From: Acidobacteriota bacterium
Lineage (GTDB): Bacteria > Acidobacteriota > Blastocatellia > Pyrinomonadales > Pyrinomonadaceae
Length of the DNA stretch: 64,000 nt
NCBI GenBank assembly: GCA_031431415.1
Contig: JANPDK010000096.1
Span: 157 to 64,156, forward strand
Reading direction: 5' to 3'
Numbering within the stretch: the stretch's first letter is position 1; the number at the start of each line of letters is the position of its first letter. The notes below the pieces were generated by a model. It saw only the letters and a program-made list of their open reading frames with translations, searched no databases and had not been told where the DNA came from. Shown here piece by piece: positions 1-50,922 of the stretch. Position numbers and translations under genes: made by a program.

Positions 1-1599
1 CTTGAGATTCGCACGCAGGAAGGCGAAACCGTCGAGGTCGGCACTGTTGTCGCGATCGTCGGCGAAGAAGGCGAGGTCTCAGCGGCAGATGCAGCAGCAC
101 CGGCAGTCGCCGAGGTCGAAATGACCACCGCATCAGAACCAGAACCCGAAGCGATTCCAGTGGAACCGGTCGTAGCAGCACCGGCAGTGGCAGAAACGCC
201 TGTTGGACCGACTGCTCCTCCTGCTACTGCTTCTGCCGCTGCTACTGCTACTGGTTCAGCCGCTGAGGTCGTCATGCCCCAAATGGGCGAATCCATCACC
301 GAAGGCACCGTCTCAAAATGGCTCAAAGCCGTAGGCGACAAGATCGAAAAGGACGAGCCGCTGCTTGAAATATCGACCGACAAAGTTGATGCTGAAGTTC
401 CTTCACCTGCGGCCGGAACGCTGCTCGCGATCAATGTTCAGGAAGGCGAAACGGTCGAGGTCGGTTCGGTTTTGGCATTGGTTGGCGCCGAGGGCACGGT
501 TGGCGGTCCGGCTGTCGCGAAAACCGAGCCGCAGCAAATGGCTGCCGCGGCGGAGTCACCCAATGGAAGTGGAGATGAGAAAGCTATGGCGGCAGCAGTC
601 GCGACTCCGCACTCCGCACTCCGCACTCCGCACTCGTTAGATGAACTTCGCCGAACAAAGTCGAGCCCATTGGTCCGCAACATCGCAAAAGAACATGGCA
701 TCGACATCACACGTATCCCGGGCAGCGGAATAAGTGGACGTGTGACAAAGGACGACATCCTTTCGTTCCTCGAAACTGGTGCAGCTCTTAGGCCGCAAGA
801 TCTGCTGGTAAAAGGTGCTCCAACGATGACTAACGTCTCAGCGTCGGCGACGAAACCCACACCGGTATTCACACCGCCGAAAGGCCCGATCCAGACAGAA
901 GACCGCATCGAGAAAATGTCGGTGATGCGTAAGAAGATCGCTGAGCACATGACTTTCTCCAAACAAACTTCGGCCCATGTGACGAGCGTTTATGAGATCG
1001 ACATGACCAATGTCGCGAAATTCCGCACAGCGAATCAGGCTGTGTTTCAGGCCAAATTTGGCACCAAGCTGACCTTTATGCCGTTCATCTTTCAGGCCGT
1101 AACGGCGGCGATCCGCGAGCATCGCATTGTCAATTCGCAGGTCGATGGTGACAATATCGTTTACAAGGGCGATATCAATCTCGGCATGGCCGTCGCTCTC
1201 GACTGGGGCCTGATCGTACCTGTGATTCGCAATGCCGAGACGCTGTCACTCGCCGAAATTGCGGTCAAGGCAAACGACCTTGCCGATCGTGCCCGTACCA
1301 AGAAACTCAGCCCCGACGAAGTTCAGGGCGGGACATTTACAATCACTAATCCCGGCGTTTTCGGTGGCCTTTACGGCACACCGATCATTAATCAGCCGCA
1401 GGTCGCGATCCTCTGCGTTGGCACGATCGAAAAGCGGGCGAAAGTAATGACCTCAGCCGACGGCGACGATTACATCGCGATCCGTCAGATGGCGTATTTC
1501 GCATTGACATACGATCATCGGGTTGTTGACGGTGCGGATGCCGAAAGGTTTTTGGCTTATCTCAAGACTTATCTTGAACAAGCACCGTTCGCGATCTGA
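1..1599 (+). CDS. 2-oxo acid dehydrogenase E2 component (dihydrolipoamide acyltransferase), 5' end outside window
   Basis: Frame 1 is open from nt 1 (LEIRTQEGETVEVGTVVAIVGEEGE, the tail of a first lipoyl domain). It is followed by a second lipoyl domain (VVMPQMGESITEGTVSKWLK..ISTDKVDAEVPS), an E3-binding domain (SPLVRNIAKEHGIDITRIPGSGISGRVTKDD) and the catalytic motif LTYDHRVVDGADAERF. Confidence 0.9.
   Translation, partial: LEIRTQEGETVEVGTVVAIVGEEGEVSAADAAAPAVAEVEMTTASEPEPEAIPVEPVVAAPAVAETPVGPTAPPATASAAATATGSAAEVVMPQMGESITEGTVSKWLKAVGDKIEKDEPLLEISTDKVDAEVPSPAAGTLLAINVQEGETVEVGSVLALVGAEGTVGGPAVAKTEPQQMAAAAESPNGSGDEKAMAAAVATPHSALRTPHSLDELRRTKSSPLVRNIAKEHGIDITRIPGSGISGRVTKDDILSFLETGAALRPQDLLVKGAPTMTNVSASATKPTPVFTPPKGPIQTEDRIEKMSVMRKKIAEHMTFSKQTSAHVTSVYEIDMTNVAKFRTANQAVFQAKFGTKLTFMPFIFQAVTAAIREHRIVNSQVDGDNIVYKGDINLGMAVALDWGLIVPVIRNAETLSLAEIAVKANDLADRARTKKLSPDEVQGGTFTITNPGVFGGLYGTPIINQPQVAILCVGTIEKRAKVMTSADGDDYIAIRQMAYFALTYDHRVVDGADAERFLAYLKTYLEQAPFAI
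604..636. repeat. 7-bp tandem repeat ACTCCGC x4.7 inside the E2 linker
   Basis: Direct reading: ACTCCGC ACTCCGC ACTCCGC ACTCCGC ACTCG. It translates in frame as TPHSALRTPHS. Confidence 0.95.
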
Positions 1600-6933: not shown

Positions 6934-7036
6934 TATTTACCGCAGAGACGCAGAGTCGCGGAGGAAAACAAAACCGCTGGAATAGACCAAATAAAATCTC
7001 ATTTGCTCTGCGTCTCGGCGTCTCTGCGGTTTTCAC
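6934..7036. repeat. word-repeat palindromic element (word GCAGAGA / TCTCTGC)
   Basis: TATTTACCGCAGAGACGCAGAGTCGCGGAGG ..loop.. TGCTCTGCGTCTCGGCGTCTCTGCGGTTTTCAC. The arms are reverse complements of each other. Confidence 0.8.
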
Positions 7037-16824: not shown

Positions 16825-19800
16825 CTATGGTCTTGCAACTACGAAAGGGCGTGGCTCGGTCTCGCGGCGGTAGAAGACTCGCGGTCGCTGGATGTTGTCG
16901 TTTCCGGCGGGATCGCCCGTCTTTTTCTTTTCTTGAGTCAACTGTGTCAACTGTCTCTTCGCAAGATCGTCCTGCTGCATCTGCGGGACGCGTTCGGTGG
17001 CGAAGTTGAGCCATTCACGCAACAGAACTTGCCCGTCTTTTGGTTCCCGATCTGCGGCCGGCGTTTTTAACCCTTCTTCGACAAGTGCATAGGTGAGAAA
17101 ACCGTGTCCGAGTTTAGCAGTCTCTTTTGCGGCCTGATAGCTCTGAGCCGCAGTCAGAATGTACATTCCTTTTTCGTAAGCAAGCTGCGCAAGGCCCTTG
17201 CTATTCATCGGCCCGCGACGTTTTTCGTCAGCCTCAAGTGCCTGCCCTGAGTTACAAGCGTCGATCACAAGCAACATTTGTCCCGCATCGATGCCCTCGA
17301 CCGCAGCTTCCAACTCCTCGTCAGAAATGCTGTGAGCAAGAATACTCTTCAGCCCAGCCGCATCCAGTTGTGTGCGACTGCCCGCGTAACCAAGATCATG
17401 CGGAATCAGGTAAAAACGATTTTGCTGGGCTGTACCGTGTCCGGCGAAGAATATCGTCAAACTGTCTTCGGGTTGAACCTTTGCCGATAAGTCGTTTAGT
17501 GCCTTTAGAATATTGCCTTTAGTTGCATCCTCGTCATTTAACGCTATGACTTCGACGCGTGCGTAATTGCCGAGCTTCTCTTGTTCCCGCTTAAATTCAC
17601 CCGCAAAATCTTTCGCGTCAGCGACGGCATAGGCCAAATTGTATTGCGTGTTTGAATACTCATTCACACCAACCGCGAGAACATAAGCCGTGCCCTTTCG
17701 CTTGAGACTATCGGCTCCGGTAACAATTAGCGTAGCATCGCTACTTTTCACGTTATCACGGTTAAAAGCGTATGCCGTCAAATTGTTCTCTCCGGCAACT
17801 ATCGGAATAGTAGCATCGAGCGTGACCCTCTGCTGTCCTTTCAAAACATCCCCATGCCAGACCTTTACCAGAGAACCGTTGCGAAAAACTCGGACATCCT
17901 GCGCCCCACTAGGCCTTTTCACATCAGCCTGTCGAGCCCTGTCCTGATTATTGGTTATCTCGACGGTAATATTGACGATTCGACTCGCTGTCGGAATTTC
18001 GTTTGGAGAAGTAGCTGGTTTTCCATCGATTGCCGTGATCTCAACACTTGGCTGTCGAATATCAACTTGCGACAAGTTCGTTAACGGCTGCTGCGGTGTA
18101 CGTCCCGCAAAGATTTCCTGTAGCAGTCCTGGAAAATAAAACTCTTTGAAAAAAGCTTCGACGGGTGCGTTTCTAAAAGTATTATTATCAAATCTCCAAT
18201 TTAGTTGCTTCAAAGCGTCCGGAGTTCCGTCAAATAAACCTTCCGGTGAAATTACTAACCAATCGTGACGCCCAAAGGTAATTAACCTCGCCATTTTCTT
18301 ACCAGTTCGAACGTCCCAGAGACCATTACTCGTAACCAGCAACTTCCCGTTTGGGCTAAACGACATTGAACGAAGCAACATCGAGGATCCGGCAAACTCC
18401 CGCAGTTTCACCCCTCGGCCGAGATCCCACAATTCCACCGCATCATTGGTTTCGCTTGATATCGCTACCAGTCTATTGTCTGGGCTAAACTCAACATTTG
18501 TTGAGAATACGTCTAATTTCCTCCGTATGCGGCCGTTACCGACATCGAACAAAAATATCGCGCCGCCGGTTTTACCTAGTTGGCCTTCGCTCTCTTTCGC
18601 TGCACTGTTAACCATTGTACTGATAACTAGAGATTTACCGTCACGACTAAATGCAACCCCAAGCGGCATGAAGGGATTGATTGGAATCGACAAGTCCCCA
18701 ATTGTACGAACTAGTTCTCCATTGGCAATATTCCAAAGCTTGACTTGAGAGAAGCCCGGCATTGGCAACCCACTTTGGCCCATAAGGCCACAATACCTGC
18801 TGTCTGGACTAAAGATCGCGGTTCCACTTCCAATTGCAAAACCCTCTTCTGACAAAGTCTTGACTTTTGCTCCTGTTGTCACATTCCAAATTTCAACCTT
18901 TGTATTTGTAAAAAAAGTCGCAGGAATACCTCCTGGCTGCATTCCCATTTGCATCAATGCCTGATTCCCCGGTGAACCTATTGTCGCCAAGAATTTGCCA
19001 TTGGGACTGAAAATTATTTGAGAGGTTGTTTGTTGGTCAAGTTGGAGGGTATGAACCGTCGCACCGGACTCAACATCCAATATGCTAACCGTTTTATCGT
19101 TGTTTGATTGTGCCGCAAGTTTGCCGTCGAAACTGACTGTGATAGCGTCCGCGTTTTTACTTATTGAAACCGTTCGTGGCTCCCTGTTATCTAATAGATC
19201 CCATGTTTTAATCGATTTGCCCTCGATAACGCTTCCTCTAATATCGTTCACGCCACTAATCACGGTTACCAAACTCTTGCCATCTGAAGTAAACATTCTC
19301 GATTCTACTCCAGATTCCAGCCCTTTAAGTGAATGGAGAATCTTGCCAGTAACACTGTTCCATATATGAACCTCTCCGCCACGGCTCCCACTCGCAATAA
19401 GCCGACCGTTTGGACTAAAGGTAACCGAAAGACTACCGGTCCGAGGGTCTTCAAGCCGCCGGACTTCAGTGCCCGTTTTTGCACCAACTATTCTAGTCAG
19501 ATTAGTCATATCTGATTCCGCATCGCTTCCGATGGCAATACTCTTGCTGTCTGGGCTAAAGGCAATTGATCCGAAAGTAAAAGCCTTGGCTTTAAATGTG
19601 GCAACTTCCTCTCCATTATCAATTGCCCAGACGTGTAAGGTGCCATCGGGATCAGCGCTTACCAGTTCATTCCCATCAGAACTGATCGCGACTGGCTGAA
19701 CCATCCCCAGGCCTTCCGACGCCTTTCCATAAGTCCGAAGTTCAATACCCGAGGCGACGTCCCAAAACTTGACCGTATTACCATGTGCCCCCGAAACGAG

Positions 19801-20367
19801 CGACTTTCCATCTGGGGTAAACGCAACATAGGCGCCTGCTGCTCCAGGGTTGATGATCTCAAGGACTTTGGTCCCCGTTACGACATCGTGCAAAGTAATA
19901 TGGGTCTTAGACGAGCCTTTTTCGTCCTGTGTCGACGCTCGAATCGCTATTAGCTTTCCGTCCGGGCTAAAAGCAACCGAAAAAACAAAAGATTCCTTTG
20001 CAAAATTACTAAGCCTTTGCCCAGAGGCAACATCCCATAAATAAACTCCGCCTGGCCCACCGCAAGCCAGAATATTACCGTCGGGGCTAAAGGCGACCGA
20101 AAGGACCATCGTTTTTTCAAAGTGGAAAACTCTCAGTTCTGTACCCTCATTGACATCCCAGAGTCTGACAGTACCGTCCCAACTCCCGCTCGCCAGCATC
20201 CTGCCGTCTGGACTGAATGCAACTGCATTAACCACGATCCTGTGCCCCTGGCGAACAATGAGTTCCGGTGTCTGACCAACCGCAATGAGCGTCGTCAGAC
20301 ACAGCAGACCTATCAGCGGTAACGCGGTTTTGAGTTTTTGAATAGATGCGAATGTGTGCATATTCAC
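16825..20367 (-). CDS. secreted WD40-repeat protein with C-terminal caspase (peptidase C14) domain
   Basis: Signal peptide (LPLIGLLCLTTLIAVGQ), about 14 WD40 units (SPDG..LASGS.DGTV.LWDV), then a caspase His/Cys dyad context (IFFAGHGT ... LLVIDACNSGQAL). Confidence 0.9.
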   Translation of the reverse strand: MNMHTFASIQKLKTALPLIGLLCLTTLIAVGQTPELIVRQGHRIVVNAVAFSPDGRMLASGSWDGTVRLWDVNEGTELRVFHFEKTMVLSVAFSPDGNILACGGPGGVYLWDVASGQRLSNFAKESFVFSVAFSPDGKLIAIRASTQDEKGSSKTHITLHDVVTGTKVLEIINPGAAGAYVAFTPDGKSLVSGAHGNTVKFWDVASGIELRTYGKASEGLGMVQPVAISSDGNELVSADPDGTLHVWAIDNGEEVATFKAKAFTFGSIAFSPDSKSIAIGSDAESDMTNLTRIVGAKTGTEVRRLEDPRTGSLSVTFSPNGRLIASGSRGGEVHIWNSVTGKILHSLKGLESGVESRMFTSDGKSLVTVISGVNDIRGSVIEGKSIKTWDLLDNREPRTVSISKNADAITVSFDGKLAAQSNNDKTVSILDVESGATVHTLQLDQQTTSQIIFSPNGKFLATIGSPGNQALMQMGMQPGGIPATFFTNTKVEIWNVTTGAKVKTLSEEGFAIGSGTAIFSPDSRYCGLMGQSGLPMPGFSQVKLWNIANGELVRTIGDLSIPINPFMPLGVAFSRDGKSLVISTMVNSAAKESEGQLGKTGGAIFLFDVGNGRIRRKLDVFSTNVEFSPDNRLVAISSETNDAVELWDLGRGVKLREFAGSSMLLRSMSFSPNGKLLVTSNGLWDVRTGKKMARLITFGRHDWLVISPEGLFDGTPDALKQLNWRFDNNTFRNAPVEAFFKEFYFPGLLQEIFAGRTPQQPLTNLSQVDIRQPSVEITAIDGKPATSPNEIPTASRIVNITVEITNNQDRARQADVKRPSGAQDVRVFRNGSLVKVWHGDVLKGQQRVTLDATIPIVAGENNLTAYAFNRDNVKSSDATLIVTGADSLKRKGTAYVLAVGVNEYSNTQYNLAYAVADAKDFAGEFKREQEKLGNYARVEVIALNDEDATKGNILKALNDLSAKVQPEDSLTIFFAGHGTAQQNRFYLIPHDLGYAGSRTQLDAAGLKSILAHSISDEELEAAVEGIDAGQMLLVIDACNSGQALEADEKRRGPMNSKGLAQLAYEKGMYILTAAQSYQAAKETAKLGHGFLTYALVEEGLKTPAADREPKDGQVLLREWLNFATERVPQMQQDDLAKRQLTQLTQEKKKTGDPAGNDNIQRPRVFYRRETEPRPFVVARP

Positions 20368-22468: not shown

Positions 22469-22753
22469 CTACGGTGTTAAAGTCTGTTCCGTCTGAATGA
22501 CGTTAACAATCGCAAGTCGGCCGCTAATAAGCGCCGTTTTGCACCACACATTTGTGATCCCATTTATCGGTGTAATCTCGTTTGTTTTCATCTGCTCGAT
22601 GAGTGACGCCTTTCCCTTGTTCCCTAACCCAGTAACTTCTACCACTTGCAAACCCTTAGCACCTTTTACAAGTGCACTGACTGGCGAACCGGAATATATT
22701 TGCGACAGATAGGTTCCGCCTTTGTATTCCAGAATGAAGGTGTAGAGTGGCAT
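22469..22753 (-). CDS. conserved hypothetical protein
   Basis: 94-aa ORF (MPLYTFILEYKGGTYLSQI...) resembling a small protein family of unknown function. Low-GC stretch. Confidence 0.5.
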   Translation of the reverse strand: MPLYTFILEYKGGTYLSQIYSGSPVSALVKGAKGLQVVEVTGLGNKGKASLIEQMKTNEITPINGITNVWCKTALISGRLAIVNVIQTEQTLTP

Positions 22754-22831
22754 ATTAGTACGCGAAATAGATCGCCAGCATATAGTCTAGTTTATCCCAC
22801 TTTTTTCGAAAGTCGTTCGTAAGTCTCGGAA

Positions 22832-24973
22832 TCAAAAGCTGCCGACGAATTCCTTTCGCTCGGATAAACCCTGCACCGCCAGCGAGATCGCGTCGATCTG
22901 GTCGTCGTGGGTACCGGTTGGGAAGGCGGCGGCTTCTTCGACGAGGTCGTGGTTCCAATGGCCGCGGATGAGGAAGACGCGTCCGGCCTCGGCGGCGGCC
23001 ATCCAGCCGATGGCCCGGGAGTGTTTGTCGCCACGCGGTTTTATCCCGCGAAGTGCACGTCCCAGAGTTTGCTTTTCGCGTCCGAGGTCCGCGAGAACGG
23101 CGTGGCCGTTGGCTGACAGCTCGACGATGTGCGATGCGCCGGGCTCGGCGGCGATACGTCCCAGGATATAACGCCGCTGCTCGGGATACTCGATCTTTCG
23201 CCGAAAACCGCCATCGATGTAAATATTCTGCTCCTTATCGACCGCCACACGAAAGCTTGCGGTGTAATCCGAAGTCGCCCCCGCCGAACAAGCCAGATCA
23301 TACGCCCGCACCCACTTCAACCCCGGCGGCGGCGCATTGATCACCTGCCTGAACCAGTCGCGTTTAAATATCCCACCCTCGGCCGGCGAAGGCCGTTGCT
23401 GATAGAGCGAAGCGAATGACCACGTGCCGATCTGTTCGCGGGTGCGTTCGAGTTCGGCAACCGGAAACCGTTCAGGCCAAAGAGCATCGCCGAAACGTCG
23501 GCCGAGTACATCAATCCCGCTCTTTGTCGCTGAAGGCGACAGAGATAATAGCCTGGGGTGAAGCCGTTTCGGCGGAACCCCAGGAACATCAGGTTCAGAG
23601 ACCTCCGCTCCCTGAAGGGGAGCAACTCGCCCCGCGCCTAGTGCGACCCCTTCAGGGTCGGGATCATCTTGGGCGGCAGACCCAGGGTTGCGGCCGTCGG
23701 CCTTACCCTGGGCGATTATCTTTGTCCCCTTCAGGGACATTTCTCCATTCTCGACTCTAAGATCGTTACCGTCTTCCCTTTCCTTCATTCTCAATTCTCC
23801 ATTCTCAATTCTCAATTGGTTCGCCGCTTCGGCGAGCGCCGGCAGATCAACCACTTCCCACTGCTCGCCGCCTTCGTCCATTTGCCGCAGCAATCTCCCG
23901 GCGAGGTCGTCTTCGTGCCAGCGGGTTTGGATGAGGACGACCTGGCCGCCGGGTTCGAGACGCGTGTAGAGGTCGTTGTTCCACCAATTCCAAACCTTGT
24001 CGCGATAGGTGAGCGAATTGGCCTGTTCGCGGTTTTTGACCGGGTCGTCAATGACGATCAGATTCGCACCGAATCCGGTAATGCCCGCTCCGACGCCAAC
24101 AGCCTTGAGCCCGCCGCCCATTGTGGTTTCCCATTCGGACTCGGTGTTCTTAAATCGAGGACGTGCGAATGGGAACGGCGAGCCGGACTCACCAGCAATT
24201 GCCGGAAGAGAAGAATTTTTGCCGCAGATGGGCGCAGATGACGCAGATCTAAGAGGTTTCTGATCTGCGCTTTCTGCGTTTATCTGCGGCAAAATCTCTT
24301 CTGCCGCCTCACGCTCCCGCGATAACATTGCGTCGTCGATCAGTACGCTCTTGATGCCGCGTGAGAATGTGTTCGCCAGCTTCTGGCCGTAGCTCGCGAT
24401 GATCGTGCGCATCGCCGGATCCTTTTTCAAACGCCACGCGGCATAGCGGACGGTGACGAGTTCGGATTTGCCGTGACGCGGCGGCATGAAGATCATCAGC
24501 CGCTTCAGATCGCCCTCGGTCATACGTCGCAAACGCTTGTAAAGATAAAGCTGATGCTTCGCCGTCCATGTCATATTCGGCGAAACAGATATGAGCCATT
24601 GTTTGAACTCGTCGTACTCTTCTTTCGCCGGATCTGGCGGAAGACAGGGAGTAGGGGAGACGGGGAGTTGGGGAGCAGGAACTGCGAACTCGGGTTGCAC
24701 AGCTTCCCCATCTCCCACACTCTCGTTCTCCCCTTCTCCCCCACTCCCCTTCTCCCCCTCTTCTTTGAGCAGCCCGTCCCAGCCGTAGCGTTCGATCCAG
24801 CCGGAGGCGGCTCGGCCGTTCTCGTAGCGTCGGTAGAGCATTCGGCGGTGAAAATCGTCGTAGCCGGCGGAGCGCATTTCGCGTTCGATCTGCTCGTGTT
24901 TTTTACCTCTGTATTTTATATAAAGCTCGCGACAAGCCTCGATACGCTCGAGGTTGCGTTCATGATCGGTCAT
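22832..24973 (-). CDS. phage terminase large-subunit-like protein, orphan, carrying in-frame repeat insertions
   Basis: Walker A IFMPPRHGKSELVT, Walker B NLIVIDDPVKN, VLIQTRWHEDDLAGRL, and C-terminal nuclease motif GTHDDQIDAISLA. The single 713-aa ORF spans three repeat elements. Confidence 0.8.
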   Translation of the reverse strand: MTDHERNLERIEACRELYIKYRGKKHEQIEREMRSAGYDDFHRRMLYRRYENGRAASGWIERYGWDGLLKEEGEKGSGGEGENESVGDGEAVQPEFAVPAPQLPVSPTPCLPPDPAKEEYDEFKQWLISVSPNMTWTAKHQLYLYKRLRRMTEGDLKRLMIFMPPRHGKSELVTVRYAAWRLKKDPAMRTIIASYGQKLANTFSRGIKSVLIDDAMLSREREAAEEILPQINAESADQKPLRSASSAPICGKNSSLPAIAGESGSPFPFARPRFKNTESEWETTMGGGLKAVGVGAGITGFGANLIVIDDPVKNREQANSLTYRDKVWNWWNNDLYTRLEPGGQVVLIQTRWHEDDLAGRLLRQMDEGGEQWEVVDLPALAEAANQLRIENGELRMKEREDGNDLRVENGEMSLKGTKIIAQGKADGRNPGSAAQDDPDPEGVALGAGRVAPLQGAEVSEPDVPGVPPKRLHPRLLSLSPSATKSGIDVLGRRFGDALWPERFPVAELERTREQIGTWSFASLYQQRPSPAEGGIFKRDWFRQVINAPPPGLKWVRAYDLACSAGATSDYTASFRVAVDKEQNIYIDGGFRRKIEYPEQRRYILGRIAAEPGASHIVELSANGHAVLADLGREKQTLGRALRGIKPRGDKHSRAIGWMAAAEAGRVFLIRGHWNHDLVEEAAAFPTGTHDDQIDAISLAVQGLSERKEFVGSF
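23521..23738. repeat. multi-hairpin palindrome, constant TGAAG/CTTCA pentaloops
   Basis: GTCGC tgaag GCGAC (23526-40). GCTCCC tgaag GGGAGC (23607-23). GACCC cttca GGGTC (23645-59). GTCCC cttca GGGAC (23724-38). Also long-range stems CCTGGGG/CCCCAGG and CCCAGGGT/ACCCTGGG. The left and right halves are reverse complements. Confidence 0.85.
23740..23814. repeat. 7-bp direct repeats ATTCTCM (x2, spacer, x4 tandem)
   Basis: Tandem ATTCTCA ATTCTCC ATTCTCA ATTCTCA at 23787-23814, and two more units at 23740-23753. In frame in the terminase-like ORF (RIENGELRM). Confidence 0.85.
24207..24300. repeat. word-repeat palindromic element (word CGCAGAT) inside the terminase-like ORF
   Basis: AAGAGAAGAATTTTTGCCGCAGATGGGCGCAGATGACGCAGATCTAAG..CTGATCTGCGCTTTCTGCGTTTATCTGCGGCAAAATCTCTT. 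Confidence 0.9.
24641..24765. repeat. word-repeat palindromic element (word GGGGAGA) inside the terminase-like ORF
   Basis: GGGAGTAGGGGAGACGGGGAGTTGGGGAGC ..loop.. CTTCCCCATCTCCCACAC..TCTCCCCTTCTCCCCCACTCCCCTTCTCCCCC. Confidence 0.8.
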
Positions 24974-24981
24974 AGGCGGGA

Positions 24982-25108
24982 GAAAAACTGATAACTAATA
25001 ACTAAACAATTGGTAACTGTTAGAAAAAAATGTGCCGTTTAGGATGAAGGTGAAGAGTTTCGTTCAATTCAGTTAATAGTTATTAGTGGGTAGTTGATAG
25101 TGGAAGAA
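24982..25108. repeat. word-repeat palindromic element (word TAACTAA)
   Basis: TGATAACTAATAACTAAACAATTGGTAACTGTTA ..loop.. TCAGTTAATAGTTATTAGTGGGTAGTTGATAGTG. Confidence 0.7.
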
Positions 25109-25156
25109 ACTGGCACGGGATCAACGTAACTGATTTTCTCTCGAATTGAAATACCT

Positions 25157-25217
25157 ATCCGCCGCTAATTCCGATAACGTCGCTATTTGCCGATAATGTA
25201 GCAATCCGCCGATAAAG
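25157..25217. repeat. orphan arm of phased direct words CCGATAA
   Basis: CCGCTAA (25162), CCGATAA (25171), CGCTATT (25181), CCGATAA (25190) and CCGATAA (25209), spaced about 9-10 bp apart. No inverted partner was seen. Confidence 0.7.
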
Positions 25218-25224
25218 AGTTTTT

Positions 25225-25324
25225 AAGAGTTTTGCCCGCGAATAACGCGAATAAAGACGAATAAAGAACTGGCAGAAGTTTTCTTTATTCGTTCTATTCG
25301 CGTTATTCGCGGGCAAAAACTCTT
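25225..25324. repeat. word-repeat palindromic element (word CGCGAAT)
   Basis: AAGAGTTTTGCCCGCGAATAACGCGAATAAAGACGAATAAAG..CTTTATTCGTTCTATTCGCGTTATTCGCGGGCAAAAACTCTT. Confidence 0.95.
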
Positions 25325-25367
25325 CTCCTTTCCCGGCACACCTTCTTAGGTTAAAATCGCCGTGTCT

Positions 25368-25859
25368 ATGAAAACTCTGCTCATCCTACGCCATGCAAAG
25401 TCTAGTTGGGACGATGCCAGCCTTTCCGATTTCGAACGTCCGTTGAATGCGCGTGGTTTGAAAGCCGCTCTGTTTGTGGGCGGGCTGATGCGGCGGCGTG
25501 AGTTGATCCCCGAAACGATCTTGTCGTCGCCGGCTATGCGTGCCCGAACGACGGCGGAATTGGTTCAGCAAGCTGGTGCTTTCGACGCCGAGATCAAATT
25601 TGACCACGACATCTACGAAGCCAGTCCCGGCAATCTCCGTCAGGCTGTTGCTGCGATCGACGACGAATTTACCACTGCCCTCCTCGTCGGCCACAACCCG
25701 GGCATCGAAGGGTTTATCAGATATCTCACCGGGAAATTAGAGCCGATGCCGACTGCGGCTTTGGCAGTGATCGAGCTTGAGGTCGATCGTTGGACGGAGG
25801 TTGATGATGGGTGCGGCGAGTTGAAAGACTTGATAAGACCAAGAGATGAAATGCAGTGA
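25368..25859 (+). CDS. sixA: phosphohistidine phosphatase SixA
   Basis: LLILRHAKSSWDD and LVGHNPG histidine-phosphatase motifs, in a size of about 165 aa. Confidence 0.85.
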   Translation: MKTLLILRHAKSSWDDASLSDFERPLNARGLKAALFVGGLMRRRELIPETILSSPAMRARTTAELVQQAGAFDAEIKFDHDIYEASPGNLRQAVAAIDDEFTTALLVGHNPGIEGFIRYLTGKLEPMPTAALAVIELEVDRWTEVDDGCGELKDLIRPRDEMQ

Positions 25860-26832: not shown

Positions 26833-27000
26833 AAGAAAATTCACCGCAGATAGACGCAGATGGACACAGATAAGAAATTTTTCTGTTGTGGGCGATTAAC
26901 ATTTTCTTTAGTAAAATTCATAGACGGCGCTAGAAGCTGCTTGAAAATAGTCACTTCTTATCTGTGTTTATCTGCGTCCATCTGCGGCTAATTTCCTCTT
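26833..27000. repeat. word-repeat palindromic element (word CGCAGAT), long loop
   Basis: AAGAAAATTCACCGCAGATAGACGCAGATGGACACAGATAAG ..about 75-nt loop.. CTTATCTGTGTTTATCTGCGTCCATCTGCGGCTAATTTCCTCTT. Confidence 0.9.
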
Positions 27001-28063: not shown

Positions 28064-28153
28064 GAAATTTTGGCCGCGGATATGCGCCGATGGAGCGGAT
28101 AAGAAAAGATTCTTGATCTGCGCCATCTGCGCTCATCTGCGGCCAAATCTCTT
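28062..28153. repeat. word-repeat palindromic element (words CGCGGAT/CGCCGAT vs ATCTGCG)
   Basis: AAGAAATTTTGGCCGCGGATATGCGCCGATGGAGCGGATAAG..CTTGATCTGCGCCATCTGCGCTCATCTGCGGCCAAATCTCTT. It starts on the kinase stop codon. Confidence 0.9.
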
Positions 28154-35293: not shown

Positions 35294-35392
35294 GAAGTTT
35301 GCCCGCGAATAACGCGAATCTACACGAATAGAAGAAAAGATCTGAGATTCTTTATTCGTCTTCATTCGCGTTATTCGCGGGCAAAAATTCTT
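35292..35392. repeat. word-repeat palindromic element (word CGCGAAT)
   Basis: AAGAAGTTTGCCCGCGAATAACGCGAATCTACACGAATAGAAG..CTTTATTCGTCTTCATTCGCGTTATTCGCGGGCAAAAATTCTT. Confidence 0.95.
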
Positions 35393-36833: not shown

Positions 36834-36944
36834 GTTTTGCCCGCGAAATACGCGAAAAGAGCGAAAAAGGATTGTCTATATGGCGAATCTGCGGTGACTA
36901 GTCGATTTATATTCGCATTTTTCGTGTATTTCGCGGGCAAACAA
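36834..36944. repeat. word-repeat palindromic element (word CGCGAAA)
   Basis: GTTTTGCCCGCGAAATACGCGAAAAGAGCGAAAAAGG..TATATTCGCATTTTTCGTGTATTTCGCGGGCAAAC. Confidence 0.9.
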
Positions 36945-36990
36945 ATCGACAAATTTTCCAAATATCGCCAAAATTGAAACCGAACACTTA

Positions 36991-37047
36991 GTTCGCTGCT
37001 CTAAACGCTCTTATTTTTCGTAATTTTCGCGTATTTCGCGGGCAAAA
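36991..37047. repeat. orphan right arm (CGCGAAA family) abutting the truA start codon
   Basis: GTTCGCTGCTCTAAACGCTCTTATTTTTCGTAATTTTCGCGTATTTCGCGGGCAAAA, followed directly by ATG 37048. Confidence 0.8.
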
Positions 37048-38328: not shown

Positions 38329-38643
38329 ATGCTTATCTACCACATAGTTTTACCCGAAGTGTGGGCGGCTTTTGACACCGGCCTTTACCAGCATGCGAGC
38401 CTCGATAGCGAAGGGTTTATTCATTGCAGTTTTGCCGATCAGCTTGACGGCGTGATCGAGCGTTATTATTCGAAAGAAAGCGAGGTCGTCGTGCTCGAGA
38501 TCGAAAGTGACAGGCTGATGTCGCGAATGATCAGAGAACCATCGACGAACAGCGAGATCTATCCGCACGTGTACGGGCCGATAAATCGCGATGCGATCGT
38601 TTCGGCGACCAAGAAGGATTTGCCCGCGAAACACGCGAAATAG
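38329..38643 (+). CDS. DUF952 domain protein
   Basis: IYHIV..VW..EGFIHCSFADQL pattern. The last 10 or so codons and the stop (KKDLPAKHAK*) are encoded by the next repeat arm. Confidence 0.8.
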   Translation: MLIYHIVLPEVWAAFDTGLYQHASLDSEGFIHCSFADQLDGVIERYYSKESEVVVLEIESDRLMSRMIREPSTNSEIYPHVYGPINRDAIVSATKKDLPAKHAK

Positions 38644-38720
38644 GCGAAATTTATAAAGAGGGTTGGGGAGTCTCGAATTCCTTATTTAGCTTTTTTCGCG
38701 TATTTCGCGGGCAAAAAATC
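38611..38720. repeat. word-repeat palindromic element (word CGCGAAA)
   Basis: AAGAAGGATTTGCCCGCGAAACACGCGAAATAGGCGAAATTT..TTATTTAGCTTTTTTCGCGTATTTCGCGGGCAAAAAATC, followed by ATG 38721. Confidence 0.9.
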
Positions 38721-39476: not shown

Positions 39477-39587
39477 GAGAAGAACTTTGGCCGCAGATCG
39501 ACGCAGATAAACGCAGATATGAAAAAGACCTAAACATCAGTTCTGATCTGTTTTTATCTGCGTTCATCTGCGGCTAAAATCTCCTTT
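39475..39587. repeat. word-repeat palindromic element (word CGCAGAT, exact 10-bp phasing)
   Basis: CGCAGAT at 39492, 39502 and 39512. ATCTG(CG) at 39546, 39556 and 39566. Flanks are AAGAGAAGAACTTTGGC and GCTAAAATCTCCTT. Confidence 0.95.
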
Positions 39588-41466: not shown

Positions 41467-41565
41467 AATTTAGCCGCAGATTTCCGCAGATGACGCGGAT
41501 CAGAATGAATTCTTGTTTAGATTCTTAATCTGCGCGATCCGCGTTAATCTGCGGCAAAAATTCTT
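41467..41565. repeat. word-repeat palindromic element (word CGCAGAT) abutting the aspS start
   Basis: TTAGCCGCAGATTTCCGCAGATGACGCGGATCAG..CTTAATCTGCGCGATCCGCGTTAATCTGCGGCAAAAATTCTT, followed by ATG 41566. Confidence 0.9.
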
Positions 41566-50710: not shown

Positions 50711-50922
50711 TGACCCGCCGCAGGCGGGCATATAGCCCCGTCCTTTAGGGCGGGGTTAGGATCGAACTGGGAATTCAAGGGCGTTTTAACGCCCTTACTG
50801 TCGCACCGATCACGGCAATGCTAAAGCGGCAAGAAGCTAAGCCCGTTAAAACGGGCTGGGAACCAGTGGTCGGCTTCTCCCCGCCCTAAAGGGACGGGGC
50901 TATGTGCCGCGTATGGCGGTCG
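50711..50922. repeat. multi-hairpin palindrome, constant TTTA/TAAA tetraloops
   Basis: CCCCGTCC ttta GGGCGGGG (50736-55). AAGGGCGT ttta ACGCCCTT (50777-96). AGCCCGT taaa ACGGGCT (50840-57). CCCCGCCC taaa GGGACGGGG (50879-99). The two halves are reverse complements. Confidence 0.85.

Follow-up and report, generated by a model that had tools for sequence, protein, structure and literature searches.

To our knowledge, selfish palindromes that persist in frame within genes are textbook knowledge only for Rickettsia, and repetitive extragenic palindromic (REP) sequences and REPINs are defined as extragenic elements. Rickettsia palindromic elements (RPEs) are described as lying in frame in functional genes and as scattered over many metabolic genes (Ogata et al. 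2000, reviewed in PMC10969869). Canonical REPs and REPINs lie almost always outside genes, with 14 of 1,067 overlapping genes in SBW25, and cluster by inserting beside existing elements (PMC3116915). A literature search on lone terminase genes and on coding palindromes in Acidobacteria returned no paper on either, and in the Avs2/Upx paper Pyrinomonadaceae appear only as the source of a sensor protein. Here, we analyze a 64,000-nucleotide (nt) stretch of contig JANPDK010000096.1 from a member of the Pyrinomonadaceae (Acidobacteriota; assembly GCA_031431415.1), hereafter called the window, in which a single open reading frame (ORF) for a 713-amino acid (aa) protein resembling the large subunit of phage terminases (TerL) reads through three blocks of palindromic repeats. 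We consider it probable that this is a lone, selectively maintained TerL-like gene in which selfish palindromic repeats are translated at three expansion sites found throughout its family.

The ORF begins with ATG, is intact and contains four terminase landmarks in the order already noticed in a first-pass annotation of the letters alone (Table 1). It matches Terminase_6N (PF03237) and Terminase_6C (PF17289) in Pfam, TIGR01630, and the terminase large subunit family phrog_38 in PHROGs (9e-93). An AlphaFold2 model built on an alignment of 95 homologues has a mean predicted local distance difference test (pLDDT) score of 79, with 413 residues above 90. Its top Foldseek match is the PhiV-1/T7-like terminase (8dgc, 2e-19), followed by the large terminases of T4 (gp17, 3cpe), HK97 (6z6d), Sf6 and D6E, and the isolated nuclease domains of RB49, G20c and P74-26 are matched as well. 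All three ATPase motifs are invariant among the 95 homologues, as are residues D559, E618, D690, D691 and D694 of the RNase H-like nuclease. The protein thus has the ASCE ATPase, the nuclease and all catalytic motifs in common with phage large terminases of the Terminase_6 type, but differs from them by three large expansions and by an additional domain of 76 aa at the N-terminus, and its gene is chromosomal, lies outside any packaging module, is syntenic across species and is often present in several copies. Phage terminases from IMG/VR are 37-43% identical to it and their matches begin only at about residue 123. The N-terminal domain is modeled with pLDDT values above 90 in the full protein and 83 when modeled alone; in the latter form, it gave no significant match in a search of Protein Data Bank folds (best E = 4.8), and the label winged helix or TerS-like would be only a reading of its predicted order of secondary structure elements.

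In alignments of 22 and 95 homologues, both sequence and length vary at three places only. Measured between hidden Markov model anchors, site 1 ranges from 12 to 149 aa across the family (median 48), site 2 from 4 to 275 aa (median 55) and site 3 from 25 to 256 aa (median 74), while the same anchors in 78 IMG/VR phage terminases give medians of 4 aa for site 2 and 2 aa for site 3. In the model, long stretches of low confidence are found at these sites and nowhere else (residues 79-113, 235-257 and 401-481), with pLDDT below 50 across the whole of residues 401-481. As far as the model can be trusted, the insertion positions therefore fit the protein fold, falling into low-pLDDT loops where phage homologues have 1-4 residues, which bears out the expectation that the segments would map to loops. 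All three blocks form palindromes with arms of 41-42 nt and 78-81% complementarity and are read in frame, as first proposed. The suggestion that they are lineage-specific insertions holds insofar as phage homologues lack them; they are not three one-off events, but occupants of hot spots common to the whole family with rapid turnover.

This turnover is seen in close relatives, whose loci carry L-numbers. In the closest one (L081), a fully syntenic orthologue with 78% identity, the anchor codons of site 1 enclose a different element (PPASAGG...ANAGGSD) and the CGCAGAT-word hairpin of site 2 is replaced by a CGGAATG-word hairpin (RNAECEVRNEE...PHSTLRTPHS). At site 3, its multi-hairpin module is kept and the word repeat alongside differs; in the orthologues L001 and L036, this site is without the module. 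Site-3 content is shared in part: beyond the window and L081, the module turns up again in distant homologues as well as in genes of other kinds. Hairpins nested in the loop of another hairpin are common in the family. Many relatives' contigs end at site 1 or site 2, suggesting that in-gene repeats break assemblies.

The gene is not part of a phage. No phage gene lies within about 10 kb in the window, or at the syntenic L081 locus as judged by precomputed Pfam matches, and no portal, capsid or integrase gene adjoins the family copies inspected; neither these two loci nor the others inspected contain a packaging or morphogenesis module, in agreement with the first-pass remark that portal, capsid, integrase and small-terminase genes are absent nearby. 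The family was sampled using one genome per GTDB species, which yielded 540 relatives. The best 80 loci stem nearly all from metagenome-assembled genomes (MAGs) of Pyrinomonadaceae/Blastocatellia, to which the lone terminase-like family is largely confined. Clustering of flanking ORFs revealed that the gene order TerL-like gene, inositol-phosphate synthase, AAA_2 ATPase is kept in about 12 Pyrinomonadaceae species at 44-78% protein identity, and the window copy is therefore orthologous to these and vertically kept. Many genomes contain 2-6 paralogues in unrelated contexts, with pairs of loci in at least 15 genomes besides one six-copy MAG (L025, L044, L068-L071). The copies in this MAG have 88-90% DNA identity and unrelated flanks, and their similarity ends at the stop codon, indicating that the duplicated unit is the gene alone.

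Such isolation from phage genes would also be expected of a decaying prophage remnant, that is, a pseudogene-in-waiting whose open frame is accidental, and eight of 60 complete members are indeed broken, five of them at a variable site. However, the ratio of nonsynonymous to synonymous substitution rates (dN/dS) in the conserved core is 0.105 and 0.109 relative to the orthologues L036 and L001, at dS values of 0.59 and 0.46, while the three sites are saturated or unalignable in the same comparison. The remaining 52 complete copies (87%) are single ORFs. When the five alternative frames of 176 site segments are considered, only 22% are free of stop codons, so a random insertion would keep the ORF open with a probability of at most about 0.12, compared with at least four elements carried by the window gene. 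Further, where an alternative frame is open, the used frame is the more hydrophilic one in 80 of 100 cases (p = 1e-9), with hydrophobic-plus-Cys residues making up 17% of used frames and 29% of open alternatives. Judged from these statistics, the intact state of the ORF appears to reflect selection on its translated product. Together with the invariant catalytic residues and the conserved synteny, this leaves a decaying remnant effectively refuted, as the first-pass annotation had anticipated.

Inteins and homing endonucleases are common in terminase large-subunit genes. Like the segments described here, they are selfish insertions that leave the terminase functional, and the segments could by analogy be removed before the protein works, either as RNA introns or as protein inteins, which would suit the compact, conserved multi-branch structure of the site-3 module and its sense orientation. 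Rfam gave no intron or ribozyme match even at permissive thresholds; over the whole window at the gathering threshold and over positions 22700-25400 at E<=1, no family was returned, only sub-threshold matches to microRNA precursors because these are generic hairpins. Pfam found no Hint/intein or endonuclease domain, the segments (30-105 aa) are too short for inteins, and they lie in non-conserved, variable loops away from catalytic motifs. Selection for a stop-free, hydrophilic frame would moreover be pointless if they were spliced out. Removal by splicing is accordingly extremely improbable, and the segments are apparently retained in the protein.

Site 3 had been described as one unit of about 300 nt, and both the palindrome and the words seen there are real, but the word repeat is short and forms an element separate from the multi-hairpin module of 213 nt. 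Folded as single-stranded DNA, the module reaches -61 kcal/mol (z = -6.9), and its hairpins H1-H3 are mirrored by H4-H6, which together with the closing stem yields the two inverted units typical of a REPIN. When 18 copies are aligned, compensatory double changes are seen at 22 of 46 pairs. The window copy and that of the closest relative are about 85% identical in DNA while differing by about 31% in protein, hence the module is conserved as a nucleic acid and not as a protein domain. Its origin can be traced in L081, where a Y1_Tnp gene (HUH, PF01797; 14260-14709) carries H1-H2'-H3 on its left and the mirror image on its right. Joining the flanks of this gene gives a sequence that aligns over 195 nt with a gene-less module copy at 72% identity, making the module an end-to-end derivative of a Y1 element. 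As judged by sequence, it is clearly a gene-less REPIN/MITE-like derivative (MITE, miniature inverted-repeat transposable element) of the ends of a Y1 element (IS200/RAYT-type). Y1 genes lie within 0.5 kb of the TerL-like gene in five loci (L011, L013, L023, L034, L063) and within 4 kb in eight of 82 (additionally L031 at 1.2 kb, L081 at 2.1 kb and L018 at 4 kb), each bordered by inverted hairpin clusters with the grammar of the module. The likeness to REPIN-RAYT and IS200-IS605 elements thus consists of a doublet of inverted hairpin clusters that also flank a Y1 (HUH) gene, seen in the closest relative and not in the window. The differences are that each half comprises three hairpins instead of one REP and that many copies are genic and apparently translated: 16 of 22 module copies in TerL loci lie inside ORFs, and 20 of 22 lie inside the TerL-like ORF or at most 50 nt past its stop codon, all in sense orientation.

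A metagenome scan without prior restriction to TerL loci, using the most conserved hairpin of the module as query, detected 37 loci, most of which are half units of 91-106 nt in intergenic DNA outside TerL genes, whereas four of five full-length modules lie in TerL-like ORFs. The idea that the module is specific to TerL-like genes was therefore dropped in favor of a wider hairpin family that occurs mostly as half units elsewhere. One metagenome contig of 1.7 kb (Ga0207712_10158385; L164 354-1478) contains five tandem half modules of about 91 nt, so the unit can amplify as an array. Beyond the TerL-like family, the element is read in the same frame (SPxGT.IAQGKAEGR.PG...) in a heavy-metal P-type ATPase, an AAA_25 ATPase, which carries a PPASAGG repeat too, and an Mrr_cat protein. 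In the P-type ATPase (L178 112-2616, L180, L191; metagenome contigs), the DKTGT phosphorylation motif is immediately followed by an in-frame half module of about 91 nt (…DKTGTLTEGKPVVTKIFLSPTGTQIIAQGKAEGRNPGSDGEQGSLPEGEQ…), a striking place for an insertion to be tolerated. Of the sense frames of the module, only the used one is open; three antisense frames are open as well, but are hydrophobic and never used in genes. Protein searches with the module peptide were uninformative: a word-indexed census returned 9 short fragments and did not recover the host protein itself, and a scan of 50% representatives returned 22 mostly short fragments.

Elements at the other sites are built from short words. 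In the window, CGCAGAT word pairs occur 12 times against 0.04 expected, and GGGGAGA pairs 4 times against 0.00 expected. The site-2 hairpin has TTTGCC...GGCAAA termini and arms of three CGCAGAT words of about 10 nt, and belongs to a family with four intergenic copies in the window (Table 1), accompanied by a sister CGCGAA word-hairpin family with at least four further copies. One of six frames of the site-2 hairpin is open, and this is the used one; in its four intergenic relatives, the counts of open frames are 0, 3, 0 and 0 of six. Several dispersed copies thus exist for the site-2 family and the 213-nt module. In contrast, the GGGGAGA polypurine/polypyrimidine hairpin of site 1 has no further copy in the window, and filtering by arm composition recovered its polypurine-arm class from five TerL-like genes and one other location; it is consequently only a candidate mobile element.

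In-frame word repeats also occur in a second window gene. The E2 acyltransferase of a 2-oxoacid dehydrogenase contains an ACTCCGC-word repeat, translated as ATPHSALRTPHS, in the flexible linker between its lipoyl and E3-binding domains, a remnant of a translated hairpin-word element. In-frame palindromic elements or their remnants are therefore found in TerL-like genes, the P-type ATPase, the AAA_25 ATPase, the Mrr_cat protein and this E2 linker. The persistence in frame that the first-pass annotation had likened to RPEs is supported by these hosts as well as by the bias in frame, stops and hydropathy and by the turnover of content. Both cases involve hairpin-forming selfish palindromes that lie in frame in functional genes of several unrelated kinds and are translated at positions compatible with the fold. 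The hosts of RPEs, on the other hand, are obligate intracellular Alphaproteobacteria and not free-living Acidobacteriota, and here several unrelated element families replace one another rapidly at three fixed hot spots of one gene family; the likeness claimed is one of mode of persistence, not of membership.

Word-built arms allow a different origin, in which low-complexity linkers grow in situ by word slippage and palindrome-creating template switching without any mobile insertion. Tandem words of 7-10 nt in the arms, 26 arrays of period 8-12 detected by Tandem Repeats Finder (TRF) inside TerL-like genes and the near-confinement of the site-1 class to these genes are in line with this. It does not explain that the site-2 hairpin has words and termini in common with four intergenic copies, that the module derives from the ends of a Y1 element and is located not only at three different sites but also behind stop codons, within other genes and between genes, or that close relatives have whole elements swapped between fixed anchor codons. 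As a general account of the segments, growth in situ is quite unlikely.

Long hairpins are unusually frequent in these genes, with 0.98 per kb in TerL-like genes compared with 0.14 in other ORFs of at least 150 aa (a 7-fold difference) and 0.67 outside ORFs at the same loci (p = 8e-55). For shared arm motifs, the density inside the genes is 8-80 times that of 1.04 Mb of flanking DNA, ratios that are somewhat inflated since the consensus was trained on in-gene copies, and one frame dominates among them (PPAxAGG in 39 of 43 cases). Clustering of whole hairpins across species was unproductive, since variants are specific to each genome and 397 of 425 clusters contained a single member. Possible contributors to the excess are the three long permissive linkers, the multiple paralogues and a self-reinforcing insertion beside existing hairpins. 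A further repeat feature of the family is located upstream: most members (L002-L075) have 4-14 direct word repeats with a consistent 9-nt period about 40-140 nt before the start codon (for example, TATCGTTCC x8-14 or CGTAAATCT x5.7). The words vary by lineage while the architecture is conserved, and the clade of the window has a TTAGTTA inverted repeat instead. TRF detected this array in 14 of 52 loci, an approximately 15-fold enrichment over the rest of the loci. That the upstream array uses the words of the in-gene repeats was rejected, with 1.6 shared 9-mers compared with 1.1 in controls.

The hairpins could accordingly be working parts or products of a terminase-like system instead of passengers. 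They might serve as recognition or cleavage sites for the RNase H/RuvC-like nuclease, form mRNA structures that throttle a dangerous nuclease, or be insertions that the protein causes by acting in cis on its own gene, possibly together with neighboring Y1 transposases. Structure-specific cleavage would have a parallel in the pac sites that lie inside phage terminase genes. A hairpin density above even that of intergenic DNA, the enriched arm motifs, the concentration of modules in and just behind TerL-like ORFs, the nearby Y1 genes, the compensatory changes that maintain module stems and the conserved upstream arrays would all suit such a link. Against it, many unrelated repeat families occupy the same sites and are swapped freely among close relatives, for which reason passengers fit better than a specific functional site. 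Some members have near-empty sites (4 aa at site 2, 12 aa at site 1), the same elements are also found between genes and, in frame, within unrelated proteins, the upstream words are unlike the in-gene repeats, and the N-terminal domain has no recognizable match to a DNA-binding fold. We consider a working role for the hairpins improbable. More speculatively, and with a slightly smaller chance of being correct, lone TerL-like genes might constitute a domesticated or selfish DNA-translocating nuclease system tied to hairpin elements of the REPIN/Y1 type, in which the protein recognizes its own locus via the N-terminal domain and the upstream 9-nt array and acts on hairpin or cruciform DNA. If so, the gene would be a preferred landing pad, vehicle or substrate of the repeats and not a passive host, and could act as a pac-like device for self-packaging or lateral transfer or as an anti-phage decoy.

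Several points also weigh against the view we favor, namely a maintained gene with translated selfish repeats. The window itself contains no Y1 transposase gene, and neither a target-site duplication nor a fresh insertion was seen, so the mechanism of insertion is inferred. The link to Y1 concerns the module and not the word-hairpins, and the site-1 class, almost confined to these genes (5 of 6), could arise in situ. Translation of the segments is deduced from sequence statistics. Finally, passive tolerance alone fails to account for a hairpin load of 0.98 per kb. We hypothesize that the elements arrive by hairpin or single-stranded DNA transposition, which for the module would be mediated by a Y1 transposase, and that they land preferentially in or beside existing hairpins, so creating self-reinforcing hot spots. 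Selection would then spare only those insertions that are located in loops, preserve the frame and are hydrophilic.

Table 1 Features of the window and their coordinates.
Feature	Position	Strand	Details
Intact lone terminase-large-subunit-like ORF (N-terminal domain, ASCE ATPase, RNase H-like nuclease)	22832..24973	-	713 aa; Pfam, PHROGs, AlphaFold2, Foldseek
Family-specific N-terminal domain, aa 1-76	24746..24973	-	Helix-helix-helix, beta-hairpin, two helices; not in phage relatives
Walker A PPRHGKS, aa 164-170	24464..24484	-	Invariant in 95-sequence alignment
Walker B LIVIDDP, aa 305-311	24041..24061	-	D309 and D310 invariant
ATPase motif QTRWHEDD, aa 349-356	23906..23929	-	Invariant
Nuclease motif THDDQIDA, aa 688-695	22889..22912	-	D690, D691, Q692 and D694 invariant
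Expansion site 1, aa 70-120	24614..24766	-	Linker after N-terminal domain; holds GGGGAGA-word hairpin 24639-24765
Arms of block 1	24640-24680 / 24723-24763		41 nt, 78% complementary
Expansion site 2, aa 215-265	24179..24331	-	ATPase-domain loop after the long helix following Walker A; holds CGCAGAT-word hairpin 24209-24302
Arms of block 2	24209-24249 / 24262-24302		41 nt, 80% complementary
Expansion site 3, aa 383-487	23513..23827	-	ATPase-nuclease linker/hinge; holds word repeat and 213-nt module
Multi-hairpin module, 213 nt, REPIN/MITE-like	23525..23739	-	Six short hairpins and closing stem; matches ends of Y1-transposase element
Arms of block 3	23525-23566 / 23698-23739		42 nt, 81% complementary
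GAGAAT(G/T)-word direct repeats	23740..23817	-	Words at 23740-23812; predicted translation LRIENGELRMKERE...VENGE; of three open frames, the hydrophilic one is used
Inverted repeat of TTAGTTA/TAACTAA words	24987..25087	.	Just upstream of start codon; counterpart of relatives' 9-nt direct arrays
Intergenic copies of CGCAGAT word-hairpin family	26834..26997, 28069-28147, 39486-39578, 41469-41559	.	Shared words and termini
Intergenic REPIN-like cousin of the module	50727..50908	.	Same grammar (hairpin-ATAGCC-hairpin ... hairpin-GGCTAT-hairpin), other stem sequences
Second word-hairpin family and CGCAGAG-type hairpin	25230-25318, 35298-35385, 36835-37047, 38619-38715, 6939-7030		TTTGCCCGCGAA[AT]AACGCGAA... 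/ ...GCGGGCAAA
E2 acyltransferase, 2-oxoacid dehydrogenase	121-1599		
ACTCCGC-word repeat in E2 gene	600..637	+	In frame
WD40/caspase protein	16825-20367	-	1180 aa

Other repeats and genes of the window complete this picture. The intergenic palindrome that follows the module's grammar with different stems probably belongs to a REPIN-like sister family of this genome. Tight intergenic gaps, often directly after stop codons, harbor a second dispersed word-hairpin family and a CGCAGAG-type hairpin, which may double as terminators. The TerL-like gene is surrounded by ordinary genes encoding a SixA-like phosphatase, a response regulator, a PAS histidine kinase, CarD, Crp-type regulators, an inositol-phosphate synthase, a WD40/caspase protein, a ClpB-like AAA_2 ATPase and an FGGY kinase. 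The WD40/caspase protein, encoded two genes from the TerL-like gene, combines multiple WD40 beta-propellers with a C-terminal caspase domain (Peptidase_C14), and its place is taken by the Y1 transposase gene in the closest relative. PADLOC yielded no defence-system match.

What is new here is the occurrence of in-frame selfish palindromes in another phylum, the involvement of REPIN-like elements and their concentration in an uncharacterized lone terminase-like family. REPIN-like and word-hairpin repeats would thus be translated in a free-living soil phylum, with evidence for a selective filter on frame, stops, hydropathy and loop location and for cassette-like turnover at fixed codons. The family exposed in this way is a phage terminase that lost its phage. 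Strong purifying selection maintains it, many genomes have several copies of it, and it is by far the main coding sink of the repeats. Repeat-derived peptides such as PPAVAGG, RNAECG..PHSALR and IAQGKAEGRNPG inflate the space of hypothetical proteins, and the insertions represent natural experiments on the insertion tolerance of a molecular motor at its domain hinges.

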